Below are positions 403 through 64,000 of a stretch of DNA of 64,000 bases, piece by piece. The DNA lies in contig CAWFUO010000006.1 in the NCBI GenBank assembly GCA_963819095.1, positions 1,280,002-1,344,001 of the forward strand. The letters are read 5' to 3'. This DNA is from Candidatus Dormiibacterota bacterium. GTDB lineage: Bacteria; Chloroflexota; Dormibacteria; Aeolococcales; Aeolococcaceae. The position numbers and the translations under genes were made by a program. How positions within the stretch are numbered: the stretch's first letter is position 1; each line of letters starts with the position of its first letter. The notes beneath the pieces are model-generated. The model was not told where the DNA came from. It worked only from the letters and a program-made list of their open reading frames with translations, and searched no databases.

Positions 403-461
403 GTCGCACGACCTCACGTGCGCAGGCAGATGGTGGGCACGAGCACCTGGGGCATCACACG

Positions 462-555
462 GCGGAGGCGGACGGGAATCGAACCCGCTTGACCGGGATA
501 CTCGGTCACACTGATTTTGAAGATCAGGAGGCCCACCAGGTGCCCAGACGCCTCC
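462..555 (-). tRNA. selC: tRNA-Sec (anticodon UCA)
   Basis: Reverse strand reads GGAGGCGTC...CCTGAT-CTTCAAA-ATCAG...GACCG-AGTATCC-CGGTC...GCGGGTTCGATTCCCGT-CCGCCTCC-G. About 94 nt with a TCA anticodon loop, a long extra arm and a T-loop TTCGATT. Lies between selA and selD. CCA is not encoded. Confidence 0.85.
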
Positions 556-7821: not shown

Positions 7822-9372
7822 TCAGTCGCCCTCGGCGAGCACCCGTGCCGCTTCACGCCGAAGCTCGCCGCGGATGACCTTGCCAGTCGCGGTCTTCGGG
7901 AGCGTCTCAACCACGATGAGGCGCCGGGGTCGCTTGTACCCGGCGAGCTCGGCGCGGCATCGGGCGAGGACGGACTCCTCGTCAAAGGCGATCCCGGCCC
8001 GCGGAACCGCGAACGCCACCGCTCGGGTCAGCCCATCGCCTGCGGCGGCACCGACAACAGCTGCCTCGGCGACGCACTCGTGGCCGAGGAGGACGCTCTC
8101 CACCTCCGTCGGCGACACCCACTCTCCGCCGACCTTGAGCATGTCGTCGCGCCGGCCGAGATGGCGATAGATGCCCTGCGCGTCGACCGAATAGAGGTCT
8201 CCGGTTCCGACCCAGTTGCCGACGAATGTGATTCTCGTCTCCTCGGTGCGACACCAGTAACCGGTCGCGGCCGCGGCGCCGGACACCCAGAGCTGACCCG
8301 GCGTGCCGGGGGGCACGGCCATCCCTTCGTCATCGAGGATGCGCACTTGGTGGCCGGCGACTGGAGTTCCCGACGCCCCCGGCGCCGCCCGCCCCGCCCG
8401 ATTGGAGATGAAGATATGGGTGAGCTCGGTGGATCCGATGCCGTCGAGGATTTCCACGCCGAAGCGGTCGCGAAAGCGCACGAAGAGCTCGGCAGGCAAT
8501 GCCTCGCCGGCGGAGACGGCGTGGCGGAGTGACGCGAAGGTCGTGTCCGGGATGTCAGCCGCTACCAGCGCGGCATAGAAGGTCGGCACAGCAAAGAAGA
8601 GGGTCGGCCGGTGCCGGGCCATCAGCCCCGCCACCAGTGCCGCGGTGGGCGGACGGGTCGGCTCCAGGATCGATTGCCCGCCTGCTGCCAGTGGGAACGT
8701 GAGGGAGTTGCCGAAGCCATACGCGTGGAACATGGGCGCCACCGACAGGTGTCGATCCGTCGCCTGGACATCGAGCACCTCACGTGCGTAGCCCTCGCAC
8801 GTGATCCTCACGTCGGCATGACGATGCATCGCCAGCTTGGGGCGTCCAGTGGTGCCCGACGTGCAGAGCCAGAAGCAGGGCGATTCGGCGCTGGTTGCGT
8901 CGGCGAAGCCACCGCCGCCGCCGGCGATGACCTCGGACCAGAGCGGCCCCGTGGCCTCGCTGGCGTCGCCCACGCGCACCAACGCGGTCAGATCGGGCGC
9001 ATCCGCCGACAGCGCGGCGATGAGCGGCGCGGCGTCGGCGCCGACGATCGCGAAGCGAGCCCGCGAGTCGCGGGCGATCGCCACCAGGTCGCGCGCTGGA
9101 AGCAGGGGGTTGACCGGCAGCGCGACAGCTCCAATGCGGATCGCGGCCAGGAGCGCCACGGCAAGCTCAGGCCCGTCGCGAAGGATGATCAGCACGCGTT
9201 CCTCGGGTCGGACGCCGAGCCGGCGCAGTCCGCCGGCGGCCGCCACGACCGCGTCGAGCAACTCCGCGTAGGTGACCGCCGAATCGCCGCTCAAGAACGC
9301 CACTCGGGCACCGTTGCCGCCCTCGACGTGGCGATCCACGAGCCACTCGCTGCAGTTGAAGTGCTCAGCCAT
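7822..9372 (-). CDS. benzoate-CoA ligase family (AMP-forming acyl-CoA synthetase)
   Basis: Start set at MAEHFNCSEWLVDRH, which overlaps the upstream gene stop by 8 nt. AMP-binding motif WLCTSGTTGRPK, ...GDLYSVDAQGIYRHLGRRDDMLKVGGEWV. The 46-codon extension in the ORF track is rejected. Confidence 0.85.
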   Translation of the reverse strand: MAEHFNCSEWLVDRHVEGGNGARVAFLSGDSAVTYAELLDAVVAAAGGLRRLGVRPEERVLIILRDGPELAVALLAAIRIGAVALPVNPLLPARDLVAIARDSRARFAIVGADAAPLIAALSADAPDLTALVRVGDASEATGPLWSEVIAGGGGGFADATSAESPCFWLCTSGTTGRPKLAMHRHADVRITCEGYAREVLDVQATDRHLSVAPMFHAYGFGNSLTFPLAAGGQSILEPTRPPTAALVAGLMARHRPTLFFAVPTFYAALVAADIPDTTFASLRHAVSAGEALPAELFVRFRDRFGVEILDGIGSTELTHIFISNRAGRAAPGASGTPVAGHQVRILDDEGMAVPPGTPGQLWVSGAAAATGYWCRTEETRITFVGNWVGTGDLYSVDAQGIYRHLGRRDDMLKVGGEWVSPTEVESVLLGHECVAEAAVVGAAAGDGLTRAVAFAVPRAGIAFDEESVLARCRAELAGYKRPRRLIVVETLPKTATGKVIRGELRREAARVLAEGD

Positions 9373-11019: not shown

Positions 11020-11716
11020 CTATCCGAGCGTCGGAACGGGCCCGGTCGGCGCAGCGTCGCCAACGAGGATTGTCTGGATCGCGCGCTCGCTGTCGACCAT
11101 TGCGAGCACGATGACCTCGTCCCCGGCGTAGAGCACTGTTTCCGGATCCGGGATGATCATGTGCTCGCGACGGACGATCGCAACGATCGCTGATTCTCTG
11201 GGCAGCCCGAGCTCGGCGATCGATACGCCACACGCCGGCGACTTCGTCGGCGAGCGTCACCTCGAGCAGGTGTGCCGAGGCGCCCTCGAAGCTCATCAGA
11301 TGAACGAGCGACCCGATCGAGACCGCCTCCTCGACAAGTGCCGTATAGAGCTGCGGTGTGGAGACTGGGACATCGACGCCCCAACTTTCGGTGAACAGCC
11401 ACTGATTGCTTGCGTTGTTCACCCGGGCGATGACACGCGGCACCGCGAACTCCTGCTTGGAGAGCAGTGAGATGACCAGGTTGTCCTCGTCGTCACCGGT
11501 CGCCGCGACCATCACATCCACCTCGGCCATGCCGGCGGCTTTGAGCGACGACACCTCGCACGCGTCTGCCACCAGCCAGCGAACGTCAACATGCGCCTGG
11601 AACCGAGCCACCTGTTCGGGGTCCACCTCGAGGATGAACACGTCATGGCCGTGCGCCTTGAGGTCCGCGGCGACGGCCATACCCACGCTGCCACCGCCGG
11701 CCACGGCGACCTTCAT
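11020..11716 (-). CDS. trkA: Trk system potassium uptake protein TrkA (RCK_N + RCK_C); apparent single frameshift near 11.22 kb
   Basis: MKVAVAGGGSVGMAVAADL (Rossmann). The C-terminal RCK_C (SIAELGLPRESAIVAIVRREHMIIPDPETVLYAGDEVIVLA) is readable only after a 1-nt shift. Length is 3n+1. Confidence 0.8.
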
Positions 11717-12402
11717 GGCTGCGCCTTGGCGGTGGAGGCGAGAACAAGCGGCGCCGGAGGCGTCAGGAGGGCTGCCAGCTCCTCGAGGCAATCCTTCATG
11801 ACCACGAAATGGAGCAGGTCGCCGTCCTGGCCGACCAGGCCGCCGGCGTCGAGGCGCGGGACGCCGGCCCGGGTGACAGCCACGAGGCGCACCTTGCCGC
11901 TTATCTCCAAGGTCGACAATTTCTGCCCGGCAAGATGTTCCGGCAGCACCCGGTCCATGAGGAGGAGCTCACCGGTGGCGTCGCGCCAGTGGGGTGTCAG
12001 CTCCTCGGGCAGCAACCAGCTGCGCACCTGGTCAACGGTCCACGTCACGGTGGCGACCGTGGGGATCCCGAGTCGCTGATAGACCTGGGCCCGTTGCGGG
12101 TCGTAGATGCGCGCGACAACCCGCTCCACGCCAAAGGTTTCGCGTGCGATCCGGGCCGCGAGAATGTTGGAGTTATCGCCTGAGGTAACGGCGGCGAATG
12201 CATCCGCGTCGGCGATCTTCGCGTCGTTGAGCGCGTTCCTGTCGAACCCTGATCCCTCGACCGCGAGCCCTTTGAAATCCGCGGGCAACCGCCGGAACGA
12301 CTTGCGATTGCGATCGATGATTGCTACAGAGTGTCCCTCCGCCTCGAGGGCGCGGGCCAGGCCGGAGCCGACCCTTCCGCAGCCGACGATGACGATGTGC
12401 AC
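11713..12402 (-). CDS. trkA: Trk system potassium uptake protein TrkA, second paralogue
   Basis: VHIVIVGCGRVGSGLARALEAEGHSV...VTSGDNSNILAA. Has an ATGA stop/start overlap with the downstream trkA. The GTG start at 12402 was chosen over longer ORF-track starts. Confidence 0.8.
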   Translation of the reverse strand: MHIVIVGCGRVGSGLARALEAEGHSVAIIDRNRKSFRRLPADFKGLAVEGSGFDRNALNDAKIADADAFAAVTSGDNSNILAARIARETFGVERVVARIYDPQRAQVYQRLGIPTVATVTWTVDQVRSWLLPEELTPHWRDATGELLLMDRVLPEHLAGQKLSTLEISGKVRLVAVTRAGVPRLDAGGLVGQDGDLLHFVVMKDCLEELAALLTPPAPLVLASTAKAQP

Positions 12403-12457
12403 GGCTCCATTCAAGCAGGTCGTTCGCGCCTCCGGGCGTATCGGCGCGATCTCCGGC

Positions 12458-14824
12458 ATGGGGCATACTGCGGCCGTGGAAGAGCCCCAGGGTCTGCCGG
12501 TGGTGCCGGTCCGCCCGCTCGCGCCCGACCAGCCCACCGCGACGGGGACGGCCACATATCCCGAATCCCTCGCCTACCGGCTGAAGAACCGGATCCTCGG
12601 TCCGCCCAAGGTCTCGGAGCAGCTCACCCAGGAACGGCTCGCCAACCCGGTCGCCATCGGCGTCCTCGCCCCGGACATGATTTCGTCCTCGGCTTACGGC
12701 ACCGAGGAAATGCTCCGCATCATGGTCCCGATCATCGGGATCGGCGCGTTCAGCATGGTCATCCCCATCACGCTGGCGATCCTCGCCGTGATGTTCTTTG
12801 TCATGTTCTCGTATCTGCAGGTCATCGGCGTGTACACGCGAATCGGCGGATCGTACGTGGTGGCCCGCGACAATTTCGGTCCCAAGGTTGCGCAGGTTGC
12901 GGCGGTGGCACTGCTCATCGACTACACGGTGACCGTCGCGGTTCAGACGTCCGCAGGCACCGCGGCGATCACGTCCGTCTATCGGAGTCTCATCCCTTAC
13001 ACCGTGGCGATCACCGTCGGTGTGACGCTGCTCATGCTGTTCGCCAATCTGCGCGGCATCCGTGAGGCCGGCTCGTTCTTCGCAATCCCCACGTATTTCT
13101 ACGTGGGGTCGCTCTCGCTGGTGATCGTCACCGGATTGGTCAAGGCGATCCTCGGCGGTCTGCAGGCGCATGGCCTTCCGACTGCGTCGGCGCTGGGCTA
13201 TCCAATCGGCCACCCCACCCAGAACTGGCTCATGGGCCTCGGTGTTTTCTACTGCTTGAAAGCGTTCGCAAACGGCGGCGTCTCGCTAACCGGGCTGGAA
13301 GCCGTCTCAGACGGCATCTCGAGCTTCCGCGTTCCGGTCGCGCGAAACGGACGCAAGGCGCTCGTGACCATGTGCTTGATCCTCGGGTTTCTCGTTCTCG
13401 GAACCTCAATCCTCGCGCATCTGACGCACGCCGTCCCCTATGCGGCTGGAACCCCGACGGTGGTCTCGCAAGAGGTTCGCTATGTGCTCGGTTCGAGCTG
13501 GGTCGGCACAGCACTCTTCTATGTGGTGCAGGCGGCCACCGTCCTGATCCTGTTCACCGGTGGGAACACGAGCTTCAACGGTTTCCCTTACCTGGCGAGC
13601 TTCGTCGCCGGAGACTCGTTCCTGCCCCGGCAGCTGACCAAGCGGGGCCATCGTCTGGCGTTCTCCAACGGCATCTTTGTGCTTGCAGTGGTGGCGATTG
13701 CCCTGATCATCGCGTTCAAAGCGCAGCTCAACGCCCTGGTTGGCCTGTATGCGGTTGGCGTCTTCACGGGGTTCACCTTTGCCGGCTTCGGCATGGTGAA
13801 ACACAATCTCCGTCTCCGCGAGCGAAGGTGGAAGCTCGGCGTTGTCGTCAACGCGTTCTCGGGAACGCTGTCACTCGCGGTCGTGGGCATCCTGCTGGTC
13901 ACCAAGTTCACCGAGGGCGCCTGGATCGTGGCGGTGGTCGGACCACCGATGTATTTCGGATTGATCCGCTTGCATCGCCAGTACGAGGCGGAGGAGAAGC
14001 AGCTGGAGACCGGCGCGGCTGCCGCCGCCGAAGCCCCGGTGCTGCAGCGTCATGTCGTCCTGGTGCTCATCGGCCAGCTCGACATGGCCGCGGCCCGCGC
14101 GGTGCAATACGCGCGCACGCTGCGACCGGATGAGCTGCGCGCGGTGCACTTCAACATCGATGCGGCAGCCACGGAAGCGCTCAAGGAGGAGTGGAGCCGT
14201 CTCGGTCTCGCCCATCTGCCGCTCGACATCATCGAGTGCCGCGACCGGCGCCTCGAGCGCGCCGCGCTGGAATATGTTGCGGATCTCGTCGCTGACGGCA
14301 AGACCGAGTGCACCGTGCTGCTTCCCCGTCGGGCGTTCAACTCGCGGCTGGCACGAGTGCTCCACGACCGCACCGCGGATCGCATCGCCGATGCCGTCGG
14401 GACAGTGGCGCACGTTGCGGCCACAATCGTCCCATTCAACCTCGAGTCGGCGCAGCAGCGCCGCGTGCGTCCCCATACCCACCGTGGGGAGGTCGCTCGC
14501 CGCAAGCCGGTCCGCACCGCCGGCGTCGACCGGGAGCTCGCCAGACGCGCAACCGGGACCATCCCCATCAGTGACGTGAAATGGCGTACCCGCGTCCGTG
14601 TTGCCGGACGCATTCGCTCCTTGCGTGTGCAGACAGCCAAGGGGACCGCGAACCTCGAGTGTGAGATCACCGACGACACAGGCATCCTGCTGCTCGTGTT
14701 CCAGGGACGTCCGAAGATCCCCGGCATCGAGCCCGGTGCGCGCTTGATCGTCGAGGGCATGGTCGGGTCATGGCAGCGCCGGCTGGCGATCCTCAATCCC
14801 GACTACGAGCTGGTCAGCGAGTAG
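12458..14824 (+). CDS. APC-superfamily permease with cytoplasmic C-terminal region fused to an OB-fold domain
   Basis: About 12 TM helices (AIGVLAPDMISSSAYGTEE..., LLIDYTVTVAV...). A soluble region follows, ending in RVAGRIRSLRVQTAKGTANLECEITDDTGILLLVFQGRPKIPGIEPGARLIVEG...NPDYEL (OB-fold family). The start is uncertain: ATG 12458 or GTG 12475. Confidence 0.75.
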   Translation: MGHTAAVEEPQGLPVVPVRPLAPDQPTATGTATYPESLAYRLKNRILGPPKVSEQLTQERLANPVAIGVLAPDMISSSAYGTEEMLRIMVPIIGIGAFSMVIPITLAILAVMFFVMFSYLQVIGVYTRIGGSYVVARDNFGPKVAQVAAVALLIDYTVTVAVQTSAGTAAITSVYRSLIPYTVAITVGVTLLMLFANLRGIREAGSFFAIPTYFYVGSLSLVIVTGLVKAILGGLQAHGLPTASALGYPIGHPTQNWLMGLGVFYCLKAFANGGVSLTGLEAVSDGISSFRVPVARNGRKALVTMCLILGFLVLGTSILAHLTHAVPYAAGTPTVVSQEVRYVLGSSWVGTALFYVVQAATVLILFTGGNTSFNGFPYLASFVAGDSFLPRQLTKRGHRLAFSNGIFVLAVVAIALIIAFKAQLNALVGLYAVGVFTGFTFAGFGMVKHNLRLRERRWKLGVVVNAFSGTLSLAVVGILLVTKFTEGAWIVAVVGPPMYFGLIRLHRQYEAEEKQLETGAAAAAEAPVLQRHVVLVLIGQLDMAAARAVQYARTLRPDELRAVHFNIDAAATEALKEEWSRLGLAHLPLDIIECRDRRLERAALEYVADLVADGKTECTVLLPRRAFNSRLARVLHDRTADRIADAVGTVAHVAATIVPFNLESAQQRRVRPHTHRGEVARRKPVRTAGVDRELARRATGTIPISDVKWRTRVRVAGRIRSLRVQTAKGTANLECEITDDTGILLLVFQGRPKIPGIEPGARLIVEGMVGSWQRRLAILNPDYELVSE

Positions 14825-53500: not shown

Positions 53501-54029
53501 GGAGACAGCTCAGAGCGAGAACCTGGTGGCTCGATCCAACTTCTTTCTCATGCGAGCCACCGTGGAGCTGGCCTCCGGCAACCTCGAGAACGCGTACCAG
53601 AGCGCGGCCGCTGCTCTTACAGCCGAGCTCTCAGGGATCAACAGCCCAGGAGCGCTGGTGATCCAGATGCGAGCAGCGCTCTGGCTCGGCGATCCGGCCC
53701 GGGCGCGGGAGGCGCTCACCGGCATGCAGGGTTTCCGCGGGCGCTGGATGGCGGCGGCCCGGCTCACCGCGGAGGCGGGACTTGCCGCCCTTGACGGCAA
53801 GCACGATGACTCAGCCGCGGCGTACGCACGCGCGCTCGACGCGTGGCGCGCGCTCGACTCGCCGCTTGATCTAGGCCTGTGCGCCCTCGACCGCGCAGTG
53901 CTCCGTGCGCCGCATGTGGAGCCGGGCACGGAGGACGACGAGGCGCGCGAGATCTTCACGAAGCTCGGCGCTCTTCCACTCCTGGCCCGACTGGATCGCG
54001 CGAGTTCAGCCGCGAGCAAGGCCGGTTGA
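50516..54029 (+). CDS. double zinc-ribbon / class III adenylate-guanylate cyclase / AAA(STAND) ATPase / TPR-like repeat protein; apparent single frameshift at ~50.70 kb
   Basis: VVCSNCGENNGPDRKFCGECGAAL..CAACGATNPVTVKFCGECG is in one frame. VSVLFADLVGFT...KFIGDAVMAVWG (cyclase), GVAGIGKSRL (P-loop) and long helical repeats are in the next. They join if the G4 run at ~50698 is G3. Length is 3n+1. Confidence 0.8.
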
Positions 54030-54031
54030 GC

Positions 54032-54056
54032 CGCAAGCCCGCTGCTTGCGCCTTTT
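54032..54056 (+). terminator. intrinsic terminator candidate
   Basis: CGCAAGC-CCGCT-GCTTGCG followed by CCTTTT, 3 nt after the cyclase gene stop. Confidence 0.5.
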
Positions 54057-54129
54057 GACGCGATCGGCAATACTGTCAACAGGTGGCGCGGGGGCGCCGG
54101 AAGGGGTTTGATTCAATCGGGGGATTGAG

Positions 54130-54294
54130 ATGTCGACCATGTCGACCAATTGGCGACGTCAGCGTCGTCTTCGTGCCGTTGCGCACTACGGGGTCACGCT
54201 CGTGACGCTCGCGCTGGTTGTGGCCTTGGCGCAGATCGTCGGCCACGATGCCGGCAACATCTTCGCGAACGTCAGTCAGGGGCTGTCGTACTGA
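54130..54294 (+). CDS. small single-TM protein (54 aa), speculative
   Basis: MSTMSTNWRRQRRLRAVAHYGVTLVTLALVVALAQIVGHDAGNIFANVSQGLSY. Basic N-terminus plus one TM helix. A purine-rich stretch lies upstream. Below the ORF-track cutoff. Confidence 0.3.
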   Translation: MSTMSTNWRRQRRLRAVAHYGVTLVTLALVVALAQIVGHDAGNIFANVSQGLSY

Positions 54295-54655
54295 CGACGT
54301 GCGCCAGGCTTTCGGGATCCGTCCCGATGTACCTGGCGAGGCTCACCGGCTCATGGCCGGTGAGCGTGCACACATCGCCGCTCACAGGTGAGAGGGCGTT
54401 CGCGGCGATGCCCGCGTTCGTCGTGACCCACCCGTCGATCACCGAGTCGGGCGCGCCGTACCTCGCGCGTGATGCGTACGCCTCGTCCATGGGCTCGTTG
54501 TGAAAGCGAGGTACCTTCCCGGAGACCCGGGGCACGACCTCGGCTGCCTTGGTGAATGTAAGTGCTTCAGGGCAGGTGAGGTCGTCCGTCTTTCCAAGGT
54601 GGCCGTCTCCGAGCAGGCTCGCAACGGCGCTCTCCTCGACATCATCGCGGAGCAC
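54272..54655 (-). pseudogene. C-terminal fragment of an NmrA-like / NAD(P)H-binding (atypical SDR) protein
   Basis: ..DLTCPEALTFTKAAEVVPRVSGKVPRFHNEPMDEAY...VCTLTGHEPVSLARYI resembles the C-terminal third of NmrA-family proteins. No Rossmann N-terminus lies upstream. Confidence 0.45.
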
Positions 54656-54685
54656 CGCGGCGACAAACCGCCGCTGCGCGACGTG

Positions 54686-55324
54686 TCAGGCGGCTGACGT
54701 CTGCGCTGCGCCGGCGGCGCCGGGTTCCGGCGGCATCACGAAGCCGACCTCGAGCGCTGCGGCCAAGGCGCGAAGCCGCGCGTAGAAGCCCGCAGTATGC
54801 GGCGAGCGGGGGAGTCGCAGTCCGGCGAAATCGTGGTGATGCTCCCACTCGTGGAGCAGCGTGTTGAGAAACACCTTGGTGGTGATCACCTGCTGACGCA
54901 CTGCGGTCTTGTGGTAGATGCGGATGCGGGCCGTTTTCACGGCGCCGTCGGCAAAGGTGCACCGGTAGAACCCGTAGGTCTTGCTCTGAAGCCGCTGTCC
55001 GTTGTGCGAATGCACCTGGGCTCGATCGGCCACCACCAGGTCGCAATGGGGGAGGCCGGCAAGCGTATCGAGCTCATCAATGAGGAGCTGGCCGAGCCGC
55101 TTGCGTTCCACCGGATCTTCTGAGGAATCGATGATGCGGAGCGCCAGCCCGCGCGCGATCGCGCTCGGTTGGACCGGCAGCCCGATGGCGCTCTGGCTCC
55201 GGCGATAGGTGGCGTCGGGACGTCGACCGAACATCTGCTCCGGGAGTATACGGCCGCCCCGGAGCCGAAAGCCCGGACAGTGCCGCTCCGGGCCAGGGCG
55301 CGCGCTGACCCATAGAATCCGCAT
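54686..55324 (-). CDS. hypothetical protein with HExxH (SprT/WLM-like) metallopeptidase-type motif
   Basis: ..YGFYRCTFADGAVKTARIRIYHKT...TLLHEWEHHHDF. The longest start abuts tRNA-Leu; the true start is probably internal (e.g. M at 55234). Confidence 0.45.
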   Translation of the reverse strand: MRILWVSARPGPERHCPGFRLRGGRILPEQMFGRRPDATYRRSQSAIGLPVQPSAIARGLALRIIDSSEDPVERKRLGQLLIDELDTLAGLPHCDLVVADRAQVHSHNGQRLQSKTYGFYRCTFADGAVKTARIRIYHKTAVRQQVITTKVFLNTLLHEWEHHHDFAGLRLPRSPHTAGFYARLRALAAALEVGFVMPPEPGAAGAAQTSAA

Positions 55325-55409
55325 GCCGGGCTGGCGAAATGGCAGACGCGGCGGTCTTAAAAACCGCTGGGGGGAAACCCTCGTCCGGGTTCAATTCCCG
55401 GGCCCGGTA
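55325..55409 (+). tRNA. tRNA-Leu (anticodon TAA)
   Basis: GCCGGGCTGGCGAAATGGCAGACGCGGCGGTCTTAAAAACCGCTGGGGGGAAACCCTCGTCCGGGTTCAATTCCCGGGCCCGGTA. Anticodon loop CTTAAAA, long variable arm, T-loop TTCAATT. Confidence 0.85.
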
Positions 55410-55411
55410 GT

Positions 55412-55431
55412 CTCATTTGAGTTCAAATGAG
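55412..55431. promoter_or_regulatory. perfect AT-rich palindrome immediately 3' of tRNA-Leu (tRNA terminator hairpin or element-end site)
   Basis: CTCATTTGA-GT-TCAAATGAG, with 9-nt arms that are exact reverse complements. Confidence 0.4.
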
Positions 55432-55482
55432 GCCGCGGTGGGCCGCTGAGAGTGAGCTGCTTGGTTGACGCCAGCATGCCAA

Positions 55483-55519
55483 TACCCCTAATGTACCCCT
55501 ACAGGACCCCTACAGATTC
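55483..55519 (+). repeat. three direct copies of (T)ACCCCTA(C/A)AG upstream of int-1
   Basis: TACCCCTAATG / TACCCCTACAG / ACCCCTACAGATTC, ending 12 nt before the int RBS. Two copies occupy the equivalent position before int-2 (58087-58112). Confidence 0.7.
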
Positions 55520-55531
55520 AGGGAGGACAGG

Positions 55532-56699
55532 GTGACGAGCAGGCGCCGAGGCCTTGGCGAAGGGACGATCCGGGAGCGACGCCCGGGCCAGTGGGAGGCG
55601 CGCGTCACGGTCGGCTTCGACGCGAGAGGTCGCCAGGTCCGGCGCAGCCTCTATGGCAAGAGCCGCGCCGACGCGGTCGCGAAGATGAATGCGGCAATCC
55701 GCGGGCTCGCTCTCGGGGTGGCACCGGCCTCCGACCGGCAGACGGTGGGTGACTTTCTCGGCACCTGGATCGAGGGACAGACCAGCATCCGCCCGACCAC
55801 CATGCGGCGGTACCGCAGCCTCATCAAGTACCAGCTGATTCCTCTCTTGGGGAGGGTCAAGCTGGCGCAGCTGACCCCGCAGCAGGTGAACCTCGCGATG
55901 CGGCAGGCGCTCGCCGGCGGCCTGGCGCCGCAAACCGTCAACCATGCCCGCGCGGTCCTGCGTTCGGCCCTGGCTGACGCGCAGCGATGGGGCACGGTGG
56001 CTCGCAACGCCGCAGCCCTCGCCGAGCCGCTCGAGGTGTCCGCGACGAGGGCGGCCGCAATGCGCCCCGAGGAAGCGCGAGCGATCCTCGACGCCTTTCG
56101 CGATACCGAGCTGGAGGCGGTCGTGGGCACGGCCCTGTATCTCGGCATGCGTCAGGGCGAGATCCTCGGACTGCGCTGGGACGATGTCGACCTCGAGCGC
56201 AAGGTGCTGCGAGTGACCGGCGCGCTGCACCGCATCCCTCGTGACCAGCGATCCGACCCGGAGGTGCTCTTCAAGATCCTCGAGCCAAAGACGAAGCGGT
56301 CTCGGCGGACGTTGCGGATTCCCGATCCCCTGGTCGACGCTGCTCACAGTTCAGCGGCAGCGGCAGCGCGAGGCTCGCCTCCGCATCGGATCGGCATGGC
56401 ACGAGCCGATCGCCGGGCTTGTGTTCACGCGCCCCACCGGTGATCCCGTGGAGGCGACGGGGATGACTCATCGCTTCGAGAACGGCCTTTGCCGAGCCGG
56501 CCTGACCGTGCGTCGCTTCCACGATTTGCGCCACGCCGCCGCGACCCTGATGCTGGCGAGCGGGACGGAGCTGAAGGTGGTCAGCACTGTGCTCGGACAC
56601 TCCACGATCGGCATCACGGCCGACACGTACGCAGACGTCCTCCAGGAGATGTACGACGACGCGGCCGACCGGCTCACCCGCCTGATCACCACGGGTTGA
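55532..56699 (+). CDS. int: tyrosine-type site-specific integrase, copy 1; frame break at 56.32-56.345 kb
   Basis: N-terminal SAM-like/core-binding part plus LYLGMRQGEILGLRWDDV (Arg I) in frame 1. AWHEP..VFTRPTG..RRFHDLRHAAATLML..LGHSTIGITADTYAD (HxxR, catalytic Tyr) in frame 3. Length is 3n+1. A C4 run lies at 56327-56330. Confidence 0.85.
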
Positions 56700-56700
56700 C

Positions 56701-56970
56701 GTGCCGCGGATCAGCGCCTTCTACGGCATCGTCATCACCATGTACTGGGAGACCGGCGGGCAACACCATGCGGCCCACTTTCACGCGACCTATGGGGAGC
56801 ATGAGGCCTCGATCGGAATCGAGCCGCTGGTGGTGCTTGACGGTTCGCTGCCGGTTCGGGCGCTTGGGCATGTCATGGAATGGGCGGCCCTGCACGAGCA
56901 GGAGCTGCGAGACAACTGGCAACGTGTGATCGAACGCACGGCGCTGGCGTCCATCGAGCCGCTCGCATAG
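56701..56970 (+). CDS. DUF4160 domain-containing protein, copy 1
   Basis: PRISAFYGIVITMYWETGGQHHAAHFHATYGEHEASIGI...LPVRALGHVMEWAALHEQELRDNW. The GTG start lies 1 nt after the int stop. Confidence 0.8.
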   Translation: MPRISAFYGIVITMYWETGGQHHAAHFHATYGEHEASIGIEPLVVLDGSLPVRALGHVMEWAALHEQELRDNWQRVIERTALASIEPLA

Positions 56971-56979
56971 GATTGGGAG

Positions 56980-57231
56980 ATGGTCAAGGTCACGCGCGTG
57001 GAACGCCTCGGCGAGTACCGGCTCCGTCTCACGTTCAGCGACGGGGTCGTCGGCGACATCGACCTGGCCGACGAGCTCTGGGGTGAGATGTTCGAGCCGC
57101 TCCGTGATATTGCTCAGTTCAACAGGGTCAGCGTGGATCCAGAGCTGGGCACGCTGGTGTGGGCGAACGGTGCAGACCTCGATCCGGAGGGGCTTCACGA
57201 CGCGGTGCGACCGGTACAACCGGCGAGCTGA
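56980..57231 (+). CDS. DUF2442 domain-containing protein, copy 1
   Basis: VTRVERLGEYRLRLTFSDGVVGDIDLADELWGEMFEPLRDIAQFNRVSVDPELGTLVWANGADLDPEGL. Confidence 0.8.
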   Translation: MVKVTRVERLGEYRLRLTFSDGVVGDIDLADELWGEMFEPLRDIAQFNRVSVDPELGTLVWANGADLDPEGLHDAVRPVQPAS

Positions 57232-57250
57232 CGCGGCTCGAACCCGAGGG

Positions 57251-57412
57251 TCACGCGGTCTGCTCGTCGACCCAGCGGCGCAGCGCATCGCGCGGTACGC
57301 GGAGTGCGCGTCCGACGCGGATAACGGGGATGGAGCCCGACCGCAACAGCTCGTAGGTGCGTGTGCGACCGAGTTGCAGTTCAGCTTCAACGTCACGAAC
57401 GGTGAGCAGCAT
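57251..57412 (-). CDS. xis: excisionase-family helix-turn-helix protein, copy 1
   Basis: MLLTVRDVEAELQLGRTRTYELLRSGSIPVIRVGRALRVPRDALRRWVDEQTA (MerR-like excisionase HTH). Convergent with the int operon. Confidence 0.8.
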   Translation of the reverse strand: MLLTVRDVEAELQLGRTRTYELLRSGSIPVIRVGRALRVPRDALRRWVDEQTA

Positions 57413-58058
57413 CGGAGTGCGCGTCGATGCAGGCGCAATGCCAACAGTTGGCGTCGTGGCCGACTTGCGCTAGTGGCGCTGGGCGTGGTGGGCGTTCCGC
57501 GTCGGCCTCGTACACCCGCGTCAGCGTGGACTATGGTGTGTGCCTTGAAGCGACGTCAACTCATTGGAACTCCAGGGGAGATTCGCCTGCTGCACGCGGG
57601 GCATGGTACTGCGCATTTCGCCGGCATCCGGCGACACATCCGCAATAGCCATGGCACGAGCATGCCACGTATTCGCCTACGCAGCGCTTACATTCTTGAG
57701 CTTCCATGTAGCTGTGAAAGTCCGGCAGGTACTTGGCTCCGCGGGTCCAGCCTCACGTCGATACCATTCGGCGTGTCCGTCGGATGTTGGACCACGCCCC
57801 ACTGGTGGTCGTGGTACGACCGATGCAACGAGGCCGAGGAGGCCGAGTTGTCTTCCGGCCTCAGCAGCACCGCCGCGCGGGGAGGCGCGCAGCGCGTGCC
57901 GCGCGGGGTGGGGGGACCCGGCCTCCACGAGCCCCGCACCGGCAATCCGGCGCATCGCGCGCCGCTTCCCCGCATCACAGCCGGCACCACGACGAACTCC
58001 CCACAGACACAGCTCCACCGGCCTCACAGACACCGCTCCCACCCCCGCATTCATCACA

Positions 58059-58088
58059 CTTTTTTTTTTTTTTTTATAAAAAAATATA
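58059..58088 (+). other. 30-nt pure A/T tract (T17-A-T-A7-T-A-T-A) at the module A / module B junction
   Basis: Read directly: cac-TTTTTTTTTTTTTTTTT-ATAAAAAAATATA-cccc. Nothing comparable occurs elsewhere in the window. Confidence 0.95.
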
Positions 58089-58130
58089 CCCCTACAGTAC
58101 CCCTACAGATTCCGATGTTTGGAGGAAAGG

Positions 58131-59298
58131 GTGACGAGCAGGCGCCGAGGGCTTGGCGAAGGGACGATCCGGGAGCGACGCCCGGGACAGTGGGAGGCGC
58201 GCGTCACGGTCGGCTTCGACACGAGAGGCCGCCAGGTCCGGCGCAGCCTCTATGGCAAGAGCCGCGCCGATGCGGTCGCGAAGATGAACGCGGCCATCCG
58301 CGGGCTCGCTCTCGGGGTGGCACCGGCCTCCGACCGGCAGACGGTGGGCGACTTTCTCGGCACCTGGATCGAGGGGCAGACCAGCATCCGCCCGACCACC
58401 ATGCGGCGGTACCGCAGCCTCATCAAGTACCAGCTGATTCCTCTCTTGGGGAGGGTCAAGCTGGCGCAGCTGACCCCGCAGCAGGTGAACGTCGCCATGC
58501 GCCAGGCGGTCGCCGGCGGCCTGGCGCCTCGAACCGTCAACCATGCCCGCGCGGTCCTGCGTTCGGCCCTGGCTGACGCGCAGCGATGGGGCACGGTGGC
58601 TCGCAACGCCGCAGCCCTGGCCGAGCCGCTCGAGGTGTCCGCGACGAGGGCGGCCTCGGTGCGCCCCGAGGAAGCGCGAGCGATCCTCGACGCCTTTCGC
58701 GGTACCGAGCTCGAGGCGGTCGTGGGCACGGCCCTGTATCTCGGCATGCGTCAGGGCGAGATCCTCGGACTGCGCTGGGACGATGTCGACCTGGAGCGCA
58801 AGGTGCTGCGCGTCACCGGCGCACTGCACCGCATCCCTCGTGACCAGCGATCCGACCCGGAGGTGCTCTTCAAAATCCTCGAGCCCAAGACGAAGCGGTC
58901 TCGGCGGACGTTGCGGATTCCCGATCCCCTGGTCGACGCTGCTCGCAGTCCAGCGACAGCGGCAGCGCGAGGCTCGCCTCCACATCGGATCGGCATGGCA
59001 CGAGCCGATCGCCGGGCTGGTGTTCACGCGCCCCACCGGTCATCCGGTGGAGCCGACGGGGATGACCCATCGGTTCGAGAAGGGCCTTCGCCGAGCCGGC
59101 CTGACCGTGCGTCGCTTCCACGATTTGCGCCACGCCGCCGCGACCCTGATGCTGGCGAGCGGGACGGAGCTGAAGGTGGTCAGCACTGTGCTCGGACACT
59201 CCACGATCGGCATCACGGCCGACACGTACGCAGACGTCCTCCAGGAGTTGCACGACGACGCGGCCGACCGGCTCACCCGCCTGATCACCACGGGTTGA
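58131..59298 (+). CDS. int: tyrosine-type site-specific integrase, copy 2; same frame break (58.92-58.945 kb)
   Basis: Co-linear with copy 1 with scattered substitutions (e.g. DARG/DTRG, NLAMRQAL/NVAMRQAV). The C4 run at 58926-58929 is in the same context. GGAGGAAAGG precedes the GTG start. Confidence 0.85.
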
Positions 59299-59299
59299 C

Positions 59300-59569
59300 G
59301 TGCCGCGGATCAGCGCCTTCTACGGCATCGTCATCACCATGTACTGGGAGACCGGCGGGCAACACCATGCGGCCCACTTTCACGCGACCTACGGGGAGCA
59401 TGAGGCGTCGATCGGAATCGAGCCGCTGGTGGTGCTTGACGGTTCGCTACCGGTGAGGGCGCTCGGGCATGTCATGGAATGGGCGGCCCTGCACGAGCAG
59501 GAGCTGCGAGACAACTGGCAACGTGTGATCGAGCGCACGGCGCTGGCGTCCATCGAGCCACTCGCATAG
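59300..59569 (+). CDS. DUF4160 domain-containing protein, copy 2
   Basis: Protein identical to copy 1 in the ORF track. Confidence 0.8.
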   Translation: MPRISAFYGIVITMYWETGGQHHAAHFHATYGEHEASIGIEPLVVLDGSLPVRALGHVMEWAALHEQELRDNWQRVIERTALASIEPLA

Positions 59570-59578
59570 GATTGGGAG

Positions 59579-59830
59579 ATGGTCAAGGTCACGCGCGTGG
59601 AGCGCCTCGGTGAGTACAGCCTCCGGCTCACGTTCAGCGACGGGGTCGTCGGCGACATCGACCTGGCCGACGAGCTCTGGGGCGAGATGTTCGAGCCGCT
59701 CCGTGACATTGCTCAGTTCAACAGCGTCAGCGTGGATCCAGAGCTGGGCACGCTGGTGTGGCCGAACGGTGCAGACCTCGATCCGGAGGGGCTTCACGAC
59801 GCGGTGCGACCGGTACAACGGGCGAGCTGA
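59579..59830 (+). CDS. DUF2442 domain-containing protein, copy 2
   Basis: Four substitutions relative to copy 1 (R/S, R/S, A/P, P/R). Confidence 0.8.
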   Translation: MVKVTRVERLGEYSLRLTFSDGVVGDIDLADELWGEMFEPLRDIAQFNSVSVDPELGTLVWPNGADLDPEGLHDAVRPVQRAS

Positions 59831-59848
59831 CGCGGCTCGAACCCGGGG

Positions 59849-60010
59849 TCACGCGGTCTGCTCGTCGACCCAGCGGCGCAGCGCATCGCGCGGTACGCGG
59901 AGTGCGCGTCCGACGCGGATAACGGGGATGGAGCCCGAGCGCAACAGCTCGTAGGTGCGCGTGCGACCGAGTTGCAGTTCAGCTTCCACGTCGCGAACGG
60001 TGAGCAGCAT
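59849..60010 (-). CDS. xis: excisionase-family helix-turn-helix protein, copy 2
   Basis: Same 53-aa sequence as copy 1 from MLLTVRDV. A 20-codon upstream extension is possible (ORF track 59849-60070). Confidence 0.8.
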   Translation of the reverse strand: MLLTVRDVEAELQLGRTRTYELLRSGSIPVIRVGRALRVPRDALRRWVDEQTA

Positions 60011-60589
60011 CGGAGCGCGTGTCGATGCAGGCGGAATGTCAACAGGTGTCGGCGCGGCCGACTCGAGCAATGGCGCTGGCGTGGTGGGCGTTCCTCGTCG
60101 GCCTCGTGCATCCGTGTCAGCGTGGACCCCGTGTGTGCCTTGAAGCGAGTCAACTCATTGGAAATCCACGGGAGATTCGCCTGCTGCACGCGGGGCATGG
60201 TGCGCGGATCGCCGGCGTCCGGCGACACGTCCGCAAAAAAAATATCACCATCTCATCGGAACCCCAAGGGAGTTTCGTCTGATGCGCGCGAGGCTTCCCG
60301 CGCACATAGCCGGTACCCGGCGACACGTCGGCGATAGCCATGGCACGAGCATGCCATGTATTTGCTTACGTAGCGCCTACATTTTTCCAGCAAAGCACAC
60401 CAGCAAGCTGCTCGGTAAGTCCGGAGTTCCTTGACACCGCGGTTCCAGGACATGGTTGACAGATAGCTCAGGACGCATCCGCCCGGCGAGCATACGCACT
60501 ACGTTGACACGCTTCCTACGGTGAAAGCTGCTTAGCGGCCTTCGCGCCTTCCACGTGATCATGCGAATGGAGCGGATCGCGCGAATTGC

Positions 60590-60762
60590 GCGCACATCGC
60601 GTTTCCGGCGCACATCGCGTTTCCGGCGCACATCGCGTCTTCCGGCGCACGTCGCGCGTCCAGCGCACTTCGCGAGGTTCGCGCACGTCGCGCGGTTCGC
60701 GCACGTCGCGATTCGCGCACGTTGCGTCGCTCGAGCGCACCGCGCTATTCGCGAACGTCGCG
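60590..60762 (+). repeat. iteron array: 8 good plus 2 degenerate copies of GCGCAC(A/G)TCGCG at ~18-bp spacing
   Basis: Copies start at 60590, 60608, 60626, 60645, 60663, 60681, 60699 and 60715, with degenerate copies at 60735 and 60751. Spacers are TTTCCG / (C)GGTTC / ATTC. No ORF is credible here. Confidence 0.9.
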
Positions 60763-61150
60763 TCCGCTCGTGCTAGTGAACTCGCCTTGCGGTCAGCGCC
60801 CGTGTCGGTCGCTGCGCGAATTCGGTCCGCGCTGCTGGCACCGCGACAGTAGGGGCAGCCGCGTCGGCGGGTAGTCTGCGCGGTCGGACGCGTCGGCAGC
60901 GCCTCGTGCTCCTCGGCATCACCTCTCGGTCCTCCGCCCGCCGGCCATCTCCTCTCACCTTCGACAGACGCACACCTGCTTCACGCCGTCCGTTCGTCAC
61001 CGCCTTCACCGCCTCGCGCACACGCATCGACGACCCTGAAACGCACACAGTTGCATCGCTGATTTCTTCCAGATCAAACGTTCCGAAAAAGTAAGCGCTC
61101 TGTAGGCGTTTTCTCCCTACGCTGAAGCCCGTGCAGGACGGGTTTCCGCG

Positions 61151-64000
61151 ATGATCTCGATCGGCAAGCTCACCAGCGTCGAGCAGGCGGTGCGGTACCT
61201 GCGCGAGGCGGTTGCGCAGCAGCAGCTCGAGTACTACACCGCCCGCGGTGAGTCGCCAGGACGATGGAGAGGACCCGGTGCGGAAGTGCTGGGTCTGCGC
61301 GGCGAGGTGACCGACACCGACTTCGCCGCGGTGCTCGCCGGCACACATCCGCGGACGGGTGAGGAGCTCGGCAAACACTGGCGGAGGCAGACGGTCGTCG
61401 CCTTCGACGTGACCGTGTCCGCACCCAAGGACGTGAGCATCCTCTACGCGCTCGGTGACGAGCGCACGCGGTCCACCATCCTGCGCATCCACGGCGAGGG
61501 AGTCCAGGCCGCCGCCGAGTATCTCCAGGCCAACGCCGGCTGGGCGCGCCAGTACAACGCGGACACCAAGACCACCGAGGCGGTGCGCGCCAAGCTGGTC
61601 ATGCCCGAGTTCGTGCATCGCACCGCCCGGCCGGTGACCGATCCGAGCCACCGGCACGGTCACCGTCGACCCGCAGCTGCACACGCACATCACCGTCCCG
61701 ACCTGGGTGCAGCGGCCCGACGGGAGCTGGAGCCAGCTGCACAGCGAGCCCCTGTACCAGCACGCCGCGGCGGCCGGCGCCATCGCCCAGGCGGAGTGGC
61801 GCGACCGTCTGGTCCGCGAGCTGGGCATCTCCACCGTGGTCGACGGCAAGGGCTGCTTCTCGATCGTCGGCATCACCGATGCCCAGCGGCGCGAGTTCTC
61901 GCGCAGGTCGCTCCAGATCGACGCCGCGGCGGCCGCGTATGACGTGACCACACGCTCCGGGCGCGAGGTGGCCACCCTCGACACCCGCGAGGGCAAGCAC
62001 GAGGTCGCGGCCACCGAGGATCTCTTCGCCCGATGGCACGAGCGTGCCGCGAGCGTCGGGCTCGACGGCGAGACGGTGCAGGCGCGTGCTCGGCCGTGAG
62101 CCCGGTGCGCTGGAGCCGCGGCGTCTCGACGTGCAGCGCTCGGTGGACATCCTCGGCGTGCACGGGCTCACCGCCCGGCAGGCGACCTTCACCCGCCGCG
62201 ACCTCATCCGCGCCGTCGCCTCGCACGCGCCCCTGGGCATGAGCCGCGCGCAGCTCGAGGCGACCGTCGACTGGATCCTCGCCGACCGTGATCGGTGCAG
62301 CCCCTGCCACCCCGGCTGCGCGAGGGCGAGACCGAGCCCGAGGCGATGCTGCGCTGGACCGAGACCGGCCATGACCTCCGATACACCACGCCGGAGATGC
62401 TCGCCCTGGAACGGGGCATGGTGGCGACTGCCCAGGCGCGTGCCGGCGCGGGCGTCGGGATGGCCCGCGCCGACACGGTCGCGGCGGCGATGGCTACGCG
62501 TCGGACGCTCACCGCTGACCAGAAGGCCATGATCCAGGAGGTCTGCCTCAGCCCCGCCGGCGTGCTGGTGATCGAGGGGGACGCCGGGGTGGGCAAGACG
62601 TACGCGCTGGAGGTCTGCCGCGAAGCCTTCGATGCCTCCGGGGTCGAGGTGGTCGGCTGCGCCCTGGCCGGACGCGCCGCCGAGCTCCTCGAGGAGGGCT
62701 CGGACATCGCCTCGACCACGGTGGCGGCGACGCTCCACCAGCTCCAGGTCGAGCGCCTGCCCTACGGCGGTGTGCTCGTGGTCGACGAGGCGGGCATGCT
62801 CGGTGACCGCCAGCTCGCCGAGCTGGTCTCCCTGGCGGCGCGCGACGAGGCCAAGCTGGTGGTGGTCGGCGATCCCTTCCAGCTCCAGCCCATCGAGGCG
62901 GGAGCACCGATGCGCACCCTGAGCGATCACATCGGCAGGGTGGAGCTGCACGAGAACATCCGCCAGCACTACGACTGGGAGCGGGCGACCCTGCAGCTGC
63001 TCCGCGACGGTGAGGCGCGCGAGGCGTACCGCGAGTACGAGCGCTACGACCGCATCCACGACGCCCACTCGGTGGCCGAGCGGCGGGTCCAGGTGATCGA
63101 GGATCACGCCCGGCTCGAGGCCGGCGGTCTCGACACGGTCATCCTCGCCCGGCGCCGTGACGAGGTGGCCGCACTCAACGAGCTGGCCCACGCCCGGTCG
63201 GTGGCCGAGGGGAGAGTCCACGGTCCGGCGCTGACCGTCGGTGACAAGGAGTACCAGGTGGGCGACCGGGTGATCTGTCTCGCCAACGAGCGCAGCGGTG
63301 CGGTCAGCAACGGCACCCGTGGCGTGGTCACCGCGGTCGACGTCGAGCGCCAGACGCTCACCCTGGAGCGTCCCGACAAGCGCCAGCTGACCCTCGACAC
63401 CACTCACTACGACGCCATCGACCGCGGCTACGCGCTGACGGTGCACAAGGCGCAGGGGATGACCGCCGACATCGCCCTGGTGGTGGGATCCGAGGGCGCC
63501 ACCCGGGAATGGGCGTACACCGCGATGTCACGCGCCACCCTGGCCACCCACTACTACGAGGTGTTCAAGCCGCCGGAGCGGGACACCCTCGGCGTCGAGC
63601 ACTGGAGAGAAACGAGCCGATCCGCCGAGGAGCGGACCGTGCAGGCGTGGACCCGCAGCGAGTTGAAGGAGTCGGCGCTCGACTACCCGGAGCGCTACGA
63701 GACGACCCGAGCGGATCACCGTCGAGGACGACCTCCGGGAGCTGGCCACCGATCGACAGCGTGCCCTGGTCGAGATACTCGGCGGATCCGAGCTGGCCCA
63801 GGAGGCGACCCGGGTGGAGGCCGGGGAGGAGATTGACCGCCTGGTGGCTCAGCGTGCCTACGACCAGGCGGAAGGTTGGCTGCGTGAGAGGGGCATGTCC
63901 GAGGAGGCGGCGCACGAGCGGCTTGCCCGCGCGGTGGACCGCATCAAGGCGGAGGACGCCGCCGGCGGGCCGCACAACCACCCCGGGGGCAAGGCCGTCG
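61151..64000 (+). pseudogene. MobF/TrwC-type relaxase fused to RecD-like helicase, at least 4 frame disruptions; continues beyond the window
   Basis: MISIGKLTSVEQAVRYLREAV..YYT..GESPGRWRG (TrwC N-terminus), VDPQLHTHITVP (His motif), Walker A GDAGVGKTY, VVDEAGML, YALTVHKAQGMT. Pieces lie in ORFs 61151-, 61707-, 62044-, 62295- and a further frame after ~63.71 kb. Confidence 0.8.

Follow-up and report, generated by a model that had tools for sequence, protein, structure and literature searches.

Organization of the locus

We analyzed a stretch of 64,000 nucleotides (positions 1,280,002 to 1,344,001 of contig CAWFUO010000006.1, assembly GCA_963819095.1, Candidatus Dormiibacterota bacterium), which is called the window throughout and has a GC content of 67%. 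By its gene content and its relatives, the window holds an integrative mobilizable element (IME) that is integrated at a tRNA-Leu gene and belongs to a family common in Candidatus Dormibacterota. Behind tRNA-Leu(TAA) two integrase modules stand head to tail, and the origin of this tandem is the main subject of this work. An earlier interpretation of the letters, here called the sequence-only reading, had described this arrangement, and pairwise alignment and Pfam searches bear it out. Each module carries, in this order, an integrase gene (int), a DUF4160 gene, a DUF2442 gene and a convergent gene for a 53-amino acid HTH_17 excisionase (xis; Pfam). An iteron array and a gene for a MobF relaxase-helicase follow the second module only, as had also been stated (Tandem Repeats Finder (TRF), Pfam). 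The tRNA gene and the two modules comprise the following features:

55324..55410 (+): tRNA-Leu(TAA) (ARAGORN, Rfam)
55356-55409 (+): attL core, the 3' part of tRNA-Leu(TAA), counterpart of the 54-nt attL/attR repeat of relatives (att repeat mapping)
55484..55515 (+): three 11-nt ACCCCTA(C/A)(A/T)G units, int-proximal arm-type boxes of module 1 (TRF, period 11)
55490-57645 (+): aligned span of module 1, head to tail with module 2
55532..56699 (+): int copy 1, tyrosine recombinase (Phage_int_SAM_3 and Phage_integrase; Pfam); an extra base at ~56338 splits the frame
56701..56970 (+): DUF4160 copy 1, DhiT-like putative toxin (Pfam 3.9e-20; NCBIfam DhiT 75 bits, cut-off 100)
56980..57231 (+): DUF2442 copy 1, DhiA-like putative antitoxin (Pfam 1.2e-12; NCBIfam)
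57251..57412 (-): excisionase (HTH_17) copy 1 (Pfam; TIGR01764 35.7 bits, cut-off 28.8)
58083-60236 (+): aligned span of module 2, head to tail with module 1
58087..58108 (+): two ACCCCTACAG boxes of module 2 in the form of the tRNA-Leu(CAA) lineage (comparison with relatives; TRF)
58131..59298 (+): int copy 2, with an extra base at ~58937, the same as in copy 1
59300..59569 (+): DUF4160 copy 2, protein identical to copy 1
59579..59830 (+): DUF2442 copy 2, counterpart of copy 1
59849..60010 (-): excisionase copy 2, protein identical to copy 1

When we aligned the two modules, we found 95.2% identity across 2162 nt with 10 gap openings. The ~97% given by the sequence-only reading is limited to the first 300 nt. 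An exact boundary offset of 2599 nt had also been claimed; this offset was found in int, but around xis it is 2598 nt. As a run of letters, the module repeat exceeds chance by far. That the tandem repeat is present inside a cell is doubtful.

As written in the window, int is frameshifted in both copies. Once the extra base is removed, both copies show the tyrosine-recombinase motifs LGMRQGE, FHDLRHAA, LGHSTI and ADTYADV. Between the copies, DUF4160 carries 8 synonymous and no non-synonymous differences and xis carries 4 synonymous and no non-synonymous ones. The ratio of non-synonymous to synonymous differences per site (pN/pS) is 0 for both of these genes, 0.21 for int and 0.13 for DUF2442. 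For the int stretch after the frameshift it is 0.48 on 14 changes, small numbers which are not decisive. These values suggest that the module genes are under purifying selection between the copies, unlike decaying pseudogenes.

In the window attL is the only attachment site and the window stops ahead of the expected attR. No second copy of the tRNA 3' end was found in it when 3 mismatches were permitted and both the TAA and the CAA forms were searched, in agreement with the sequence-only reading. The conserved right-arm segment of the relatives was not found in the window either, and Rfam searches over the intergenic regions matched nothing but the tRNA.

Related elements

The exact DUF4160 protein was found on many public contigs. 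When genomes were scanned with the helicase portion of the relaxase, 23 loci were obtained, 21 of them in Candidatus Dormibacterota-type metagenome-assembled genomes (MAGs) and 2 in Acidimicrobiales MAGs; Microflora Danica long-read MAGs and Stordalen palsa MAGs are among these loci. Two lineages are of importance here, and the related loci are designated by L numbers. Type A elements (L001, L002, L006) are located at tRNA-Leu(TAA) in the chromosomal context of the window and carry no relaxase. Type B elements (L003/L024, L004, L008, L009, L010, L022, L025, L042) are located at tRNA-Leu(CAA) and follow the order int-DUF4160-DUF2442-xis-iterons-relaxase-cargo. In addition, L026 carries a relaxase-bearing element at tRNA-Leu(TAA).

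The sequence-only reading had advised a comparison with relatives and a search for direct repeats of the tRNA-Leu 3' region. Such repeats, 54-55 nt long and reaching from the anticodon loop of tRNA-Leu to its 3' end, do bound the elements of relatives (L001, L006, L007, L024, L025, L042), and each relative holds a single module. The element sizes range from 5.8 to 14 kb: 5.75 kb in L001 (repeats at 8657 and 14411), 9.3 kb in L006, 10.3 kb in L007, 14.1 kb in L024 (repeats at 5728 and 19868), 8.6 kb in L025 and 7.9 kb in L042. The ACCCCTACAG boxes flank the core, with two boxes ~85-95 nt after the attL core and one or two 112-122 nt before the attR core; the arm-type box of module 1 is also present 112-122 nt before attR in five relatives. 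This layout is that expected of arm-type integrase sites around attP, and the boxes may well function as such. The two-module arrangement is absent from all of the ~20 related loci that hold the module.

Across genomes the elements share 93-96% identity, compared with 76-86% for the flanking chromosome. Neither a coupling protein nor a type IV secretion system (T4SS) was found within the att-bounded relatives. The elements in L024, L025 and L042 contain only int, the toxin-antitoxin pair, xis, the relaxase and cargo, the latter consisting of ABC transporter/MauE/FtsX genes, an extracytoplasmic function (ECF) sigma factor and proteins of unknown function. For the cargo open reading frames (ORFs) of elements that lack a relaxase, Pfam searches returned nothing informative. 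Since the identity of the elements exceeds that of their flanks, since neither a coupling protein nor a T4SS is encoded and since the relaxase passes the MobF model, these data point to an element that is mobile but unable to transfer itself. The classification of the locus as an IME at tRNA-Leu, as proposed from the letters, is supported by these att repeats, by the signs of mobility and by the lack of coupling protein and T4SS genes in the relatives.

The relaxase module (at least 91% nucleotide identity to the window) was also found ~2 kb downstream of other tRNA genes, behind different tyrosine integrases. At tRNA-Ser(TGA) (L032, L033, L037, L041) the integrase is 49% identical to the tRNA-Leu int, at tRNA-Ala(CGC) (L036, L038) it is 22% identical, and at tRNA-Thr(GGT) (L023) the same relaxase module is accompanied by a further integrase. 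Several copies of the relaxase module occur per MAG. These gene arrangements suggest a modular family of IMEs in which integration modules are exchanged.

Two side observations concern individual relatives. L007 (18986-20270) and L024 (19923-21413) share the left tRNA-Leu(CAA) flank and their sequences past attR are unrelated; there may be further islands or rearrangements to the right of the element in these loci. The relaxase-less tRNA-Leu(CAA) element of L005 carries a RVT_1 reverse transcriptase and an IS110-family transposase as cargo (11979-13442, -).

Pieces and joints

When the window was compared with the two lineages, three pieces (P1, P2, P3) could be distinguished, which are separated by two joints (J1, J2):

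57700..58059 (+): segment specific to relaxase-less tRNA-Leu(TAA) elements, end of P1 (97.5% identity to L001 10993-11350)
58060..58085: J1, 26-nt filler T16-AT-A7-T (TTTTTTTTTTTTTTTTATAAAAAAAT), missing from both parental-type relatives
58086-60234: P2, opening at the arm boxes in type B form
60151..60234: first version of a hypervariable ~90-nt block, end of P2 (97% identity to L026, 96% to L005/L007)
60235..60245: J2, filler A8TAT (AAAAAAAATAT), inside module 2, splitting two allelic versions of one block
60249..60332: second version of the hypervariable block, start of P3 (93-94% identity to L003/L008)

P1 with module 1 follows the type A relatives at tRNA-Leu(TAA) and is truncated 3 kb before attR; it stops at 58059, whereas L001 runs 3 kb further, up to the attR at 14411. 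Module 2 and the relaxase match the type B lineage at tRNA-Leu(CAA), and module 2 shares 95.9% identity with L003/L004 as against 95.2% with module 1. At their ends the two copies match different lineages, with 96-97% versus 89-92% at the flanks and 91% versus 68-74% at the right end. P2 lacks the ~85-nt spacer and the att core which precede the arm boxes in every relative, and at J1 there is neither an att core nor a right-arm box.

The filler of J1 consists of A and T only, which is very unusual at 67% GC. In the window there are two AT-only runs of at least 10 nt, and these are J1 and J2; the 10-mer AAAAAAATAT is common to both. No such run was found in 641 kb of related loci. To our knowledge, the AT fillers match no adapter. 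Both versions of the block at J2 are enclosed precisely by the conserved anchors GCCTTGAAGCGA and ATAGCCATGGCACGAG, and the relatives carry one version each, never two. Neither J1 nor J2 is present in any relative. A search of Joint Genome Institute (JGI) metagenome contigs for J1 and J2 with flexible filler gave 0 matches each, a weak negative since the nearest relatives are from samples of the European Nucleotide Archive (ENA).

We also considered a template/variable repeat pair of a diversity-generating retroelement as an explanation for the two 84-nt blocks. We rejected this possibility because the mismatches are not restricted to adenine and because either version is found as the normal allele in some relative.

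A putative small minus-strand ORF (MAIADVSP...) is located at 57521-57652 (-) and at 60150-60341 (-). It begins at the conserved GCCATGGC and spans the hypervariable ~90-nt block upstream of xis. On the type B contigs L016-L019 this ORF was called in frame with xis, giving a 131-amino acid HTH_17 protein.

Frameshifts and alleles in series

Both int genes carry an identical 1-nt insertion, GGTCGA[C]GCTGCTC (~56338 and ~58937), which is the sole indel when they are compared with ten intact 388-amino acid relatives. The relaxase gene carries four 1-nt indels (~61647, 62085, 62291 and 63706) as compared with intact 972-amino acid relatives. Exact-protein look-ups with the 513-amino acid relaxase ORF and with both frameshifted int ORFs found none on record.

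When we inspected the alleles of the relatives at these positions, we found that every frameshifting insertion consists of the two alleles of a known single nucleotide polymorphism (SNP) written in series (four SNP sites, five insertions). In int, GTCGA[CG]CTG contains both alleles; the relatives have either GTCGACCTG (...GAC CTG, n=14) or GTCGAGCTG (...GAG CTG, n=6), and the codon is three-allelic (GAG/GAC/GCG). In the relaxase gene the window reads [AG] at 61647 (relatives A n=7, G n=11), [GC] at 62085 (G n=15, C n=5) and [AC] at 63706 (A n=11, C n=13). Random 1-nt insertions would mimic such a pattern in 13% of the cases in the relaxase gene and in 6% in int, and the joint chance for three relaxase insertions and one int insertion is ~1e-4.

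The same pattern is seen in other long-read loci. In total, 18 private 1-nt insertions were counted in L013, L014, L021 and L038, which have Flye-style names, in the window and in L041. Of these, 14 consist of alleles in series; the single insertion of L041 does not. Eight short-read-style contigs of the element carry zero private insertions, long-read and short-read contigs being told apart solely by naming style. In the relaxase genes of L013/L004, L014/L008, L021 and L038, in-series insertions cut the gene into two or three called genes.

Random Nanopore indel noise was rejected as cause of the frameshifts. The indels lie at SNP sites and not at homopolymers, and the genes of the 55 kb of chromosome in the window, including the long ones, are intact; this part shows no joints of the J1/J2 kind.

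Origin of the tandem modules

Alternative alleles and alternative blocks that are known from relatives thus stand in series in one contig. We consider it likely that the tandem modules and the broken genes are co-existing variants which were concatenated during long-read metagenome assembly, and most probably both are not biological. The contig would be a consensus of at least two co-existing element variants, a relaxase-less one of the tRNA-Leu(TAA) type and relaxase-bearing ones, and the assembler would have written the alternatives serially at three scales: SNPs (the frameshifts), the ~90-nt block (J2) and the 2.6-kb module (J1). The structural side of this case follows from J1 and J2 and from the fact that no relative shows the arrangement. 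The source contig is larger than 1 Mb and its nearest relatives are Microflora Danica Nanopore MAGs, which were assembled by Flye --meta with one Medaka round (PMC12313526). For long-read metagenome assemblers it has been described that variable regions of subpopulations are concatenated and that false duplications, non-existent sequence and indels unsupported by reads occur (bioRxiv 10.1101/2025.04.22.649783). An assembly duplication of a single module, which the sequence-only reading had named as the outcome that would overturn it, is therefore the explanation favored by the evidence, short of proof. That reading had passed over the int frameshifts, the four relaxase indels, J2 inside module 2 and the 26-nt AT-only filler of J1.

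Several points weigh against assembly as the origin of the tandem. The case is read from the letters of the contig and not from read clipping at the joints, and the Flye/Medaka origin of this contig is deduced from the size of the contig and from its relatives. No AT fillers are seen in other long-read loci of the family, and we know of no documented mechanism for such fillers. Alleles in series also occur in single-module loci, which indicates mixed reads and not a structural misjoin. Moreover, tRNA genes in nature often carry tandem or truncated islands, and a 2.6-kb repeat is normally spanned correctly by a long-read assembler.

A real composite island, in which a truncated relaxase-less tRNA-Leu(TAA) element was joined illegitimately (outside att and with an AT filler) to a relaxase-bearing relative of the CAA lineage, appears unlikely. 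J2 would then come from a second such event and only the frameshifts would be sequencing artefacts. The arrangement lies within a contig of more than 1 Mb, arrays of whole and decayed elements are frequent at tRNA genes (PMC5704250), the elements are mosaics present in several copies per genome, which makes recombination between them plausible, and the genes of both modules look intact after removal of the single extra base. However, two independent non-homologous joints would be required, each with the same unusual AAAAAAATAT-containing filler, one of them would have to set two allelic 90-nt versions exactly between conserved anchors, and neither joint is seen in any relative. Somewhat more doubtful is a real tandem in which a relaxase-bearing IME of the tRNA-Leu(CAA) lineage was captured beside a truncated tRNA-Leu(TAA) relative by a non-att joining process that leaves a AAAAAAATAT-containing AT filler at each joint. 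If true, this would be an unrecognized route by which composite islands arise in Dormibacterota, and synthesis without a template or of a reverse-transcriptase-like kind might take part in it. A chimera between loci, in which the contig jumps from a tRNA-Leu(TAA) element to a tRNA-Leu(CAA) element of the same or another genome and everything to the right of 58086 belongs elsewhere, is very unlikely. The left end and the relaxase region of P2 and P3 group with the CAA lineage, and the related long-read contigs L020, L021, L031 and L039 end inside or beside the element, indicating that assemblers break here. Yet P2 ends on the right with sequence of the TAA/L026 type, L026 carries a relaxase-bearing element at tRNA-Leu(TAA), which makes a variant of the same locus equally possible, and the window stops before the right flank.

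The two origins proposed by the sequence-only reading, accretion of two related elements at one att site or duplication of the recombination module, did not withstand the comparison with relatives. Site-specific accretion is the usual origin of tandem IMEs and leaves an internal att site (PMC5704250); the integrases of both modules share a specificity class and attR of this family rebuilds the target site. This defining internal att core is absent in the TAA and the CAA form alike and element 1 is without a right end, so accretion is not supported: no right-arm segment or box was found before J1, element 1 is truncated within its cargo region, and module 2 opens at its arm boxes with the preceding spacer and core missing. 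We regard accretion as highly improbable. Hardly credible is an in situ duplication of the module by unequal crossing-over or slippage with subsequent divergence, in which the int frameshift would have been inherited from the parent copy. The head-to-tail copies with their constant 2599-nt offset and the identical extra base in both int copies would fit this explanation, but at their ends the copies match different external lineages (module 1 type A at TAA, module 2 type B at CAA) and module 2 is nearer to L003/L004 than to module 1. In addition, the shared extra base lies at a three-allele codon and represents two alleles in series, and int downstream of the frameshift still has fewer non-synonymous changes per site (0.48, small numbers).

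With concatenation of variants during assembly as the preferred explanation, the tandem modules and the apparently pseudogenised int and relaxase genes are unfit as evidence for accretion, module duplication or decay of the element. The biology of the underlying element is real and modestly interesting.

Relaxase, candidate oriT and predicted transfer

Downstream of module 2, the following features were found:

60589-60762: 18-nt iteron array with ~7-10 units (TRF), kept in relatives with variable copy number
61083..61125 (+): conserved motif AAAAAGTAAGCGCTCTGTAGGCG with a short hairpin, promoter/operator or origin of transfer (oriT) candidate, ~50 nt upstream of the relaxase start
61151..64000 (+): MobF relaxase-helicase (TrwC and AAA_30; Pfam), continuing past the window edge

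The AAA_30 helicase domain of the window relaxase was detected at 5e-52 (Pfam), and an intact 972-amino acid relative scored 208 bits with the NCBIfam MobF model NF041492 (cut-off 100). The protein could be aligned to TraI/TrwC relaxase structures, including DPQLHTH with the LHTH histidine motif. Its identity to the nearest plasmid MobF proteins (Rhodococcus, Streptomyces, Methylobacterium) is 27-31%. By its TrwC domain, histidine region and fused SF1B helicase the protein is classified as a MobF (MOBF) relaxase, and with this predicted enzyme the window element has the relaxase of its own that is expected of an IME.

Each relaxase copy is preceded by the AAAAAGTAAGCGCTCTGTAGGCG motif, which on the minus strand also stands ahead of the xis operon (57674-57694). 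In the form aa(a/t)GTAAGCGCTnnGTAGGC it is located at 61083-61125 (+), 57674-57694 (-) and 60363-60383 of the window and at 11425 (+) of L001, so that it precedes three operons: the relaxase, the minus-strand operon toward xis and the cargo operon of relaxase-less elements. These positions suggest a promoter or operator that the three operons share. Behind the copy next to the relaxase gene lies a GTAGG...CCTAC hairpin. The sequence GTAAGCGCT...GTAGGCG is a candidate oriT, but since it also precedes the xis operon and the relaxase-less cargo operon, it is no less likely to be a promoter or operator used in common.

From these components a transfer cycle can be proposed. The element would carry its own 54-nt 3' half of tRNA-Leu, so that integration would rebuild the gene, as is seen in the relatives. 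Int would bind the ACCCCTACAG arm boxes and the core and, together with Xis, would excise the element as a circle. The MobF relaxase would nick an oriT located within the 0.9 kb that separate xis from the relaxase gene, a region which holds the iterons, GTAAGCGCT...GTAGGCG and the hairpin, and would pilot the strand through the mating channel of a helper, the element encoding none. The DUF4160/DUF2442 pair may penalize loss of the element, as suggested by homology and by the Thermus result described below.

Chromosomal part of the window

A tRNA-SeC gene was found at 461-555 (-), and the organism probably uses selenocysteine. In L001 and L002 an NmrA-family gene is located between the guanylate-cyclase/AAA_16 gene and the tRNA-proximal ORF of 182-212 amino acids. 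Comparison of window 54029-54686 with L001 7062-7946 revealed no intact NmrA-family counterpart in the window; at this position there is a 137-amino acid ORF without Pfam match, which still aligns to L001 at ~76% identity.

Comparison with known systems

The elements share many properties with IMEs at tRNA genes (Guedon et al. 2017, PMC5704250). The relatives of 5.8-14 kb carry int, xis and a relaxase of their own, they are bounded by direct repeats of the tRNA 3' end, and they combine an addiction module and variable cargo with the lack of a coupling protein and a T4SS. Here, transfer is predicted from the genes. Unlike the IMEs reviewed there, the present elements have a relaxase of the MobF type, reside in the uncultured phylum Dormibacterota and join one relaxase module to unrelated integrases at tRNA-Ser, tRNA-Ala and tRNA-Thr. 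At the time of the 2017 review no canonical IME with a MobF or MobH relaxase was known (PMC5704250). The MobF relaxase, the Dormibacterota hosts and the modular swapping of integrases are the less usual features of this IME family. An uncultured soil phylum harbors multi-copy, small, tRNA-integrating mobilizable elements, in which one MobF module is combined with integrase modules that appear to be swapped among tRNA targets.

With MobF relaxase-helicases (TrwC of R388, TraI of F/pKM101, actinobacterial plasmids) the relaxase shares the TrwC domain, the LHTH motif and a RecD-like AAA_30 domain. In contrast to the plasmid enzymes, to which it is 27-31% identical, it is encoded by an integrated element that carries no cognate coupling protein. 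The DUF4160/DUF2442 pair resembles DhiTA of Dickeya dadantii and a Thermus plasmid module: the genes are adjacent and in the same order, the proteins have similar lengths (~89 and ~83 amino acids), and the pair is located on a mobile element. For the Thermus plasmid pair, a "persistence-enhancing module", it was reported that persistence was raised and that the second ORF neutralizes the first (PMC12724237). The scores for DhiT (75 bits, cut-off 100) and DhiA (38 bits, cut-off 200) are both below equivalog level, and the pair is best described as a putative toxin-antitoxin system of the DhiT/DhiA superfamily, not as its equivalog.

Tandem accretion arrays (ICESt1/ICESt3, IME_Sag2603_tRNAlys, SGI1) resemble the window in having two related head-to-tail integration modules beside one tRNA gene. 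The window differs from them by the missing internal att site, by a first element without right end and by an AT-filler joint. The window also resembles the errors of long-read assembly described by Trigodet et al. (bioRxiv 10.1101/2025.04.22.649783), which include variable regions placed serially between conserved flanks, direct repeats missing from relatives, sequence without counterpart and indels that break ORFs. There the diagnosis was made by read clipping, whereas here it was made from sequence alone. SNP alleles in series and AT fillers are not described by Trigodet et al. and are observations of the present analysis. The occurrence of both SNP alleles in series is a simple diagnostic that needs no reads and separated long-read from short-read assemblies of this element; it could serve as a general flag for consensus errors in mixed populations.

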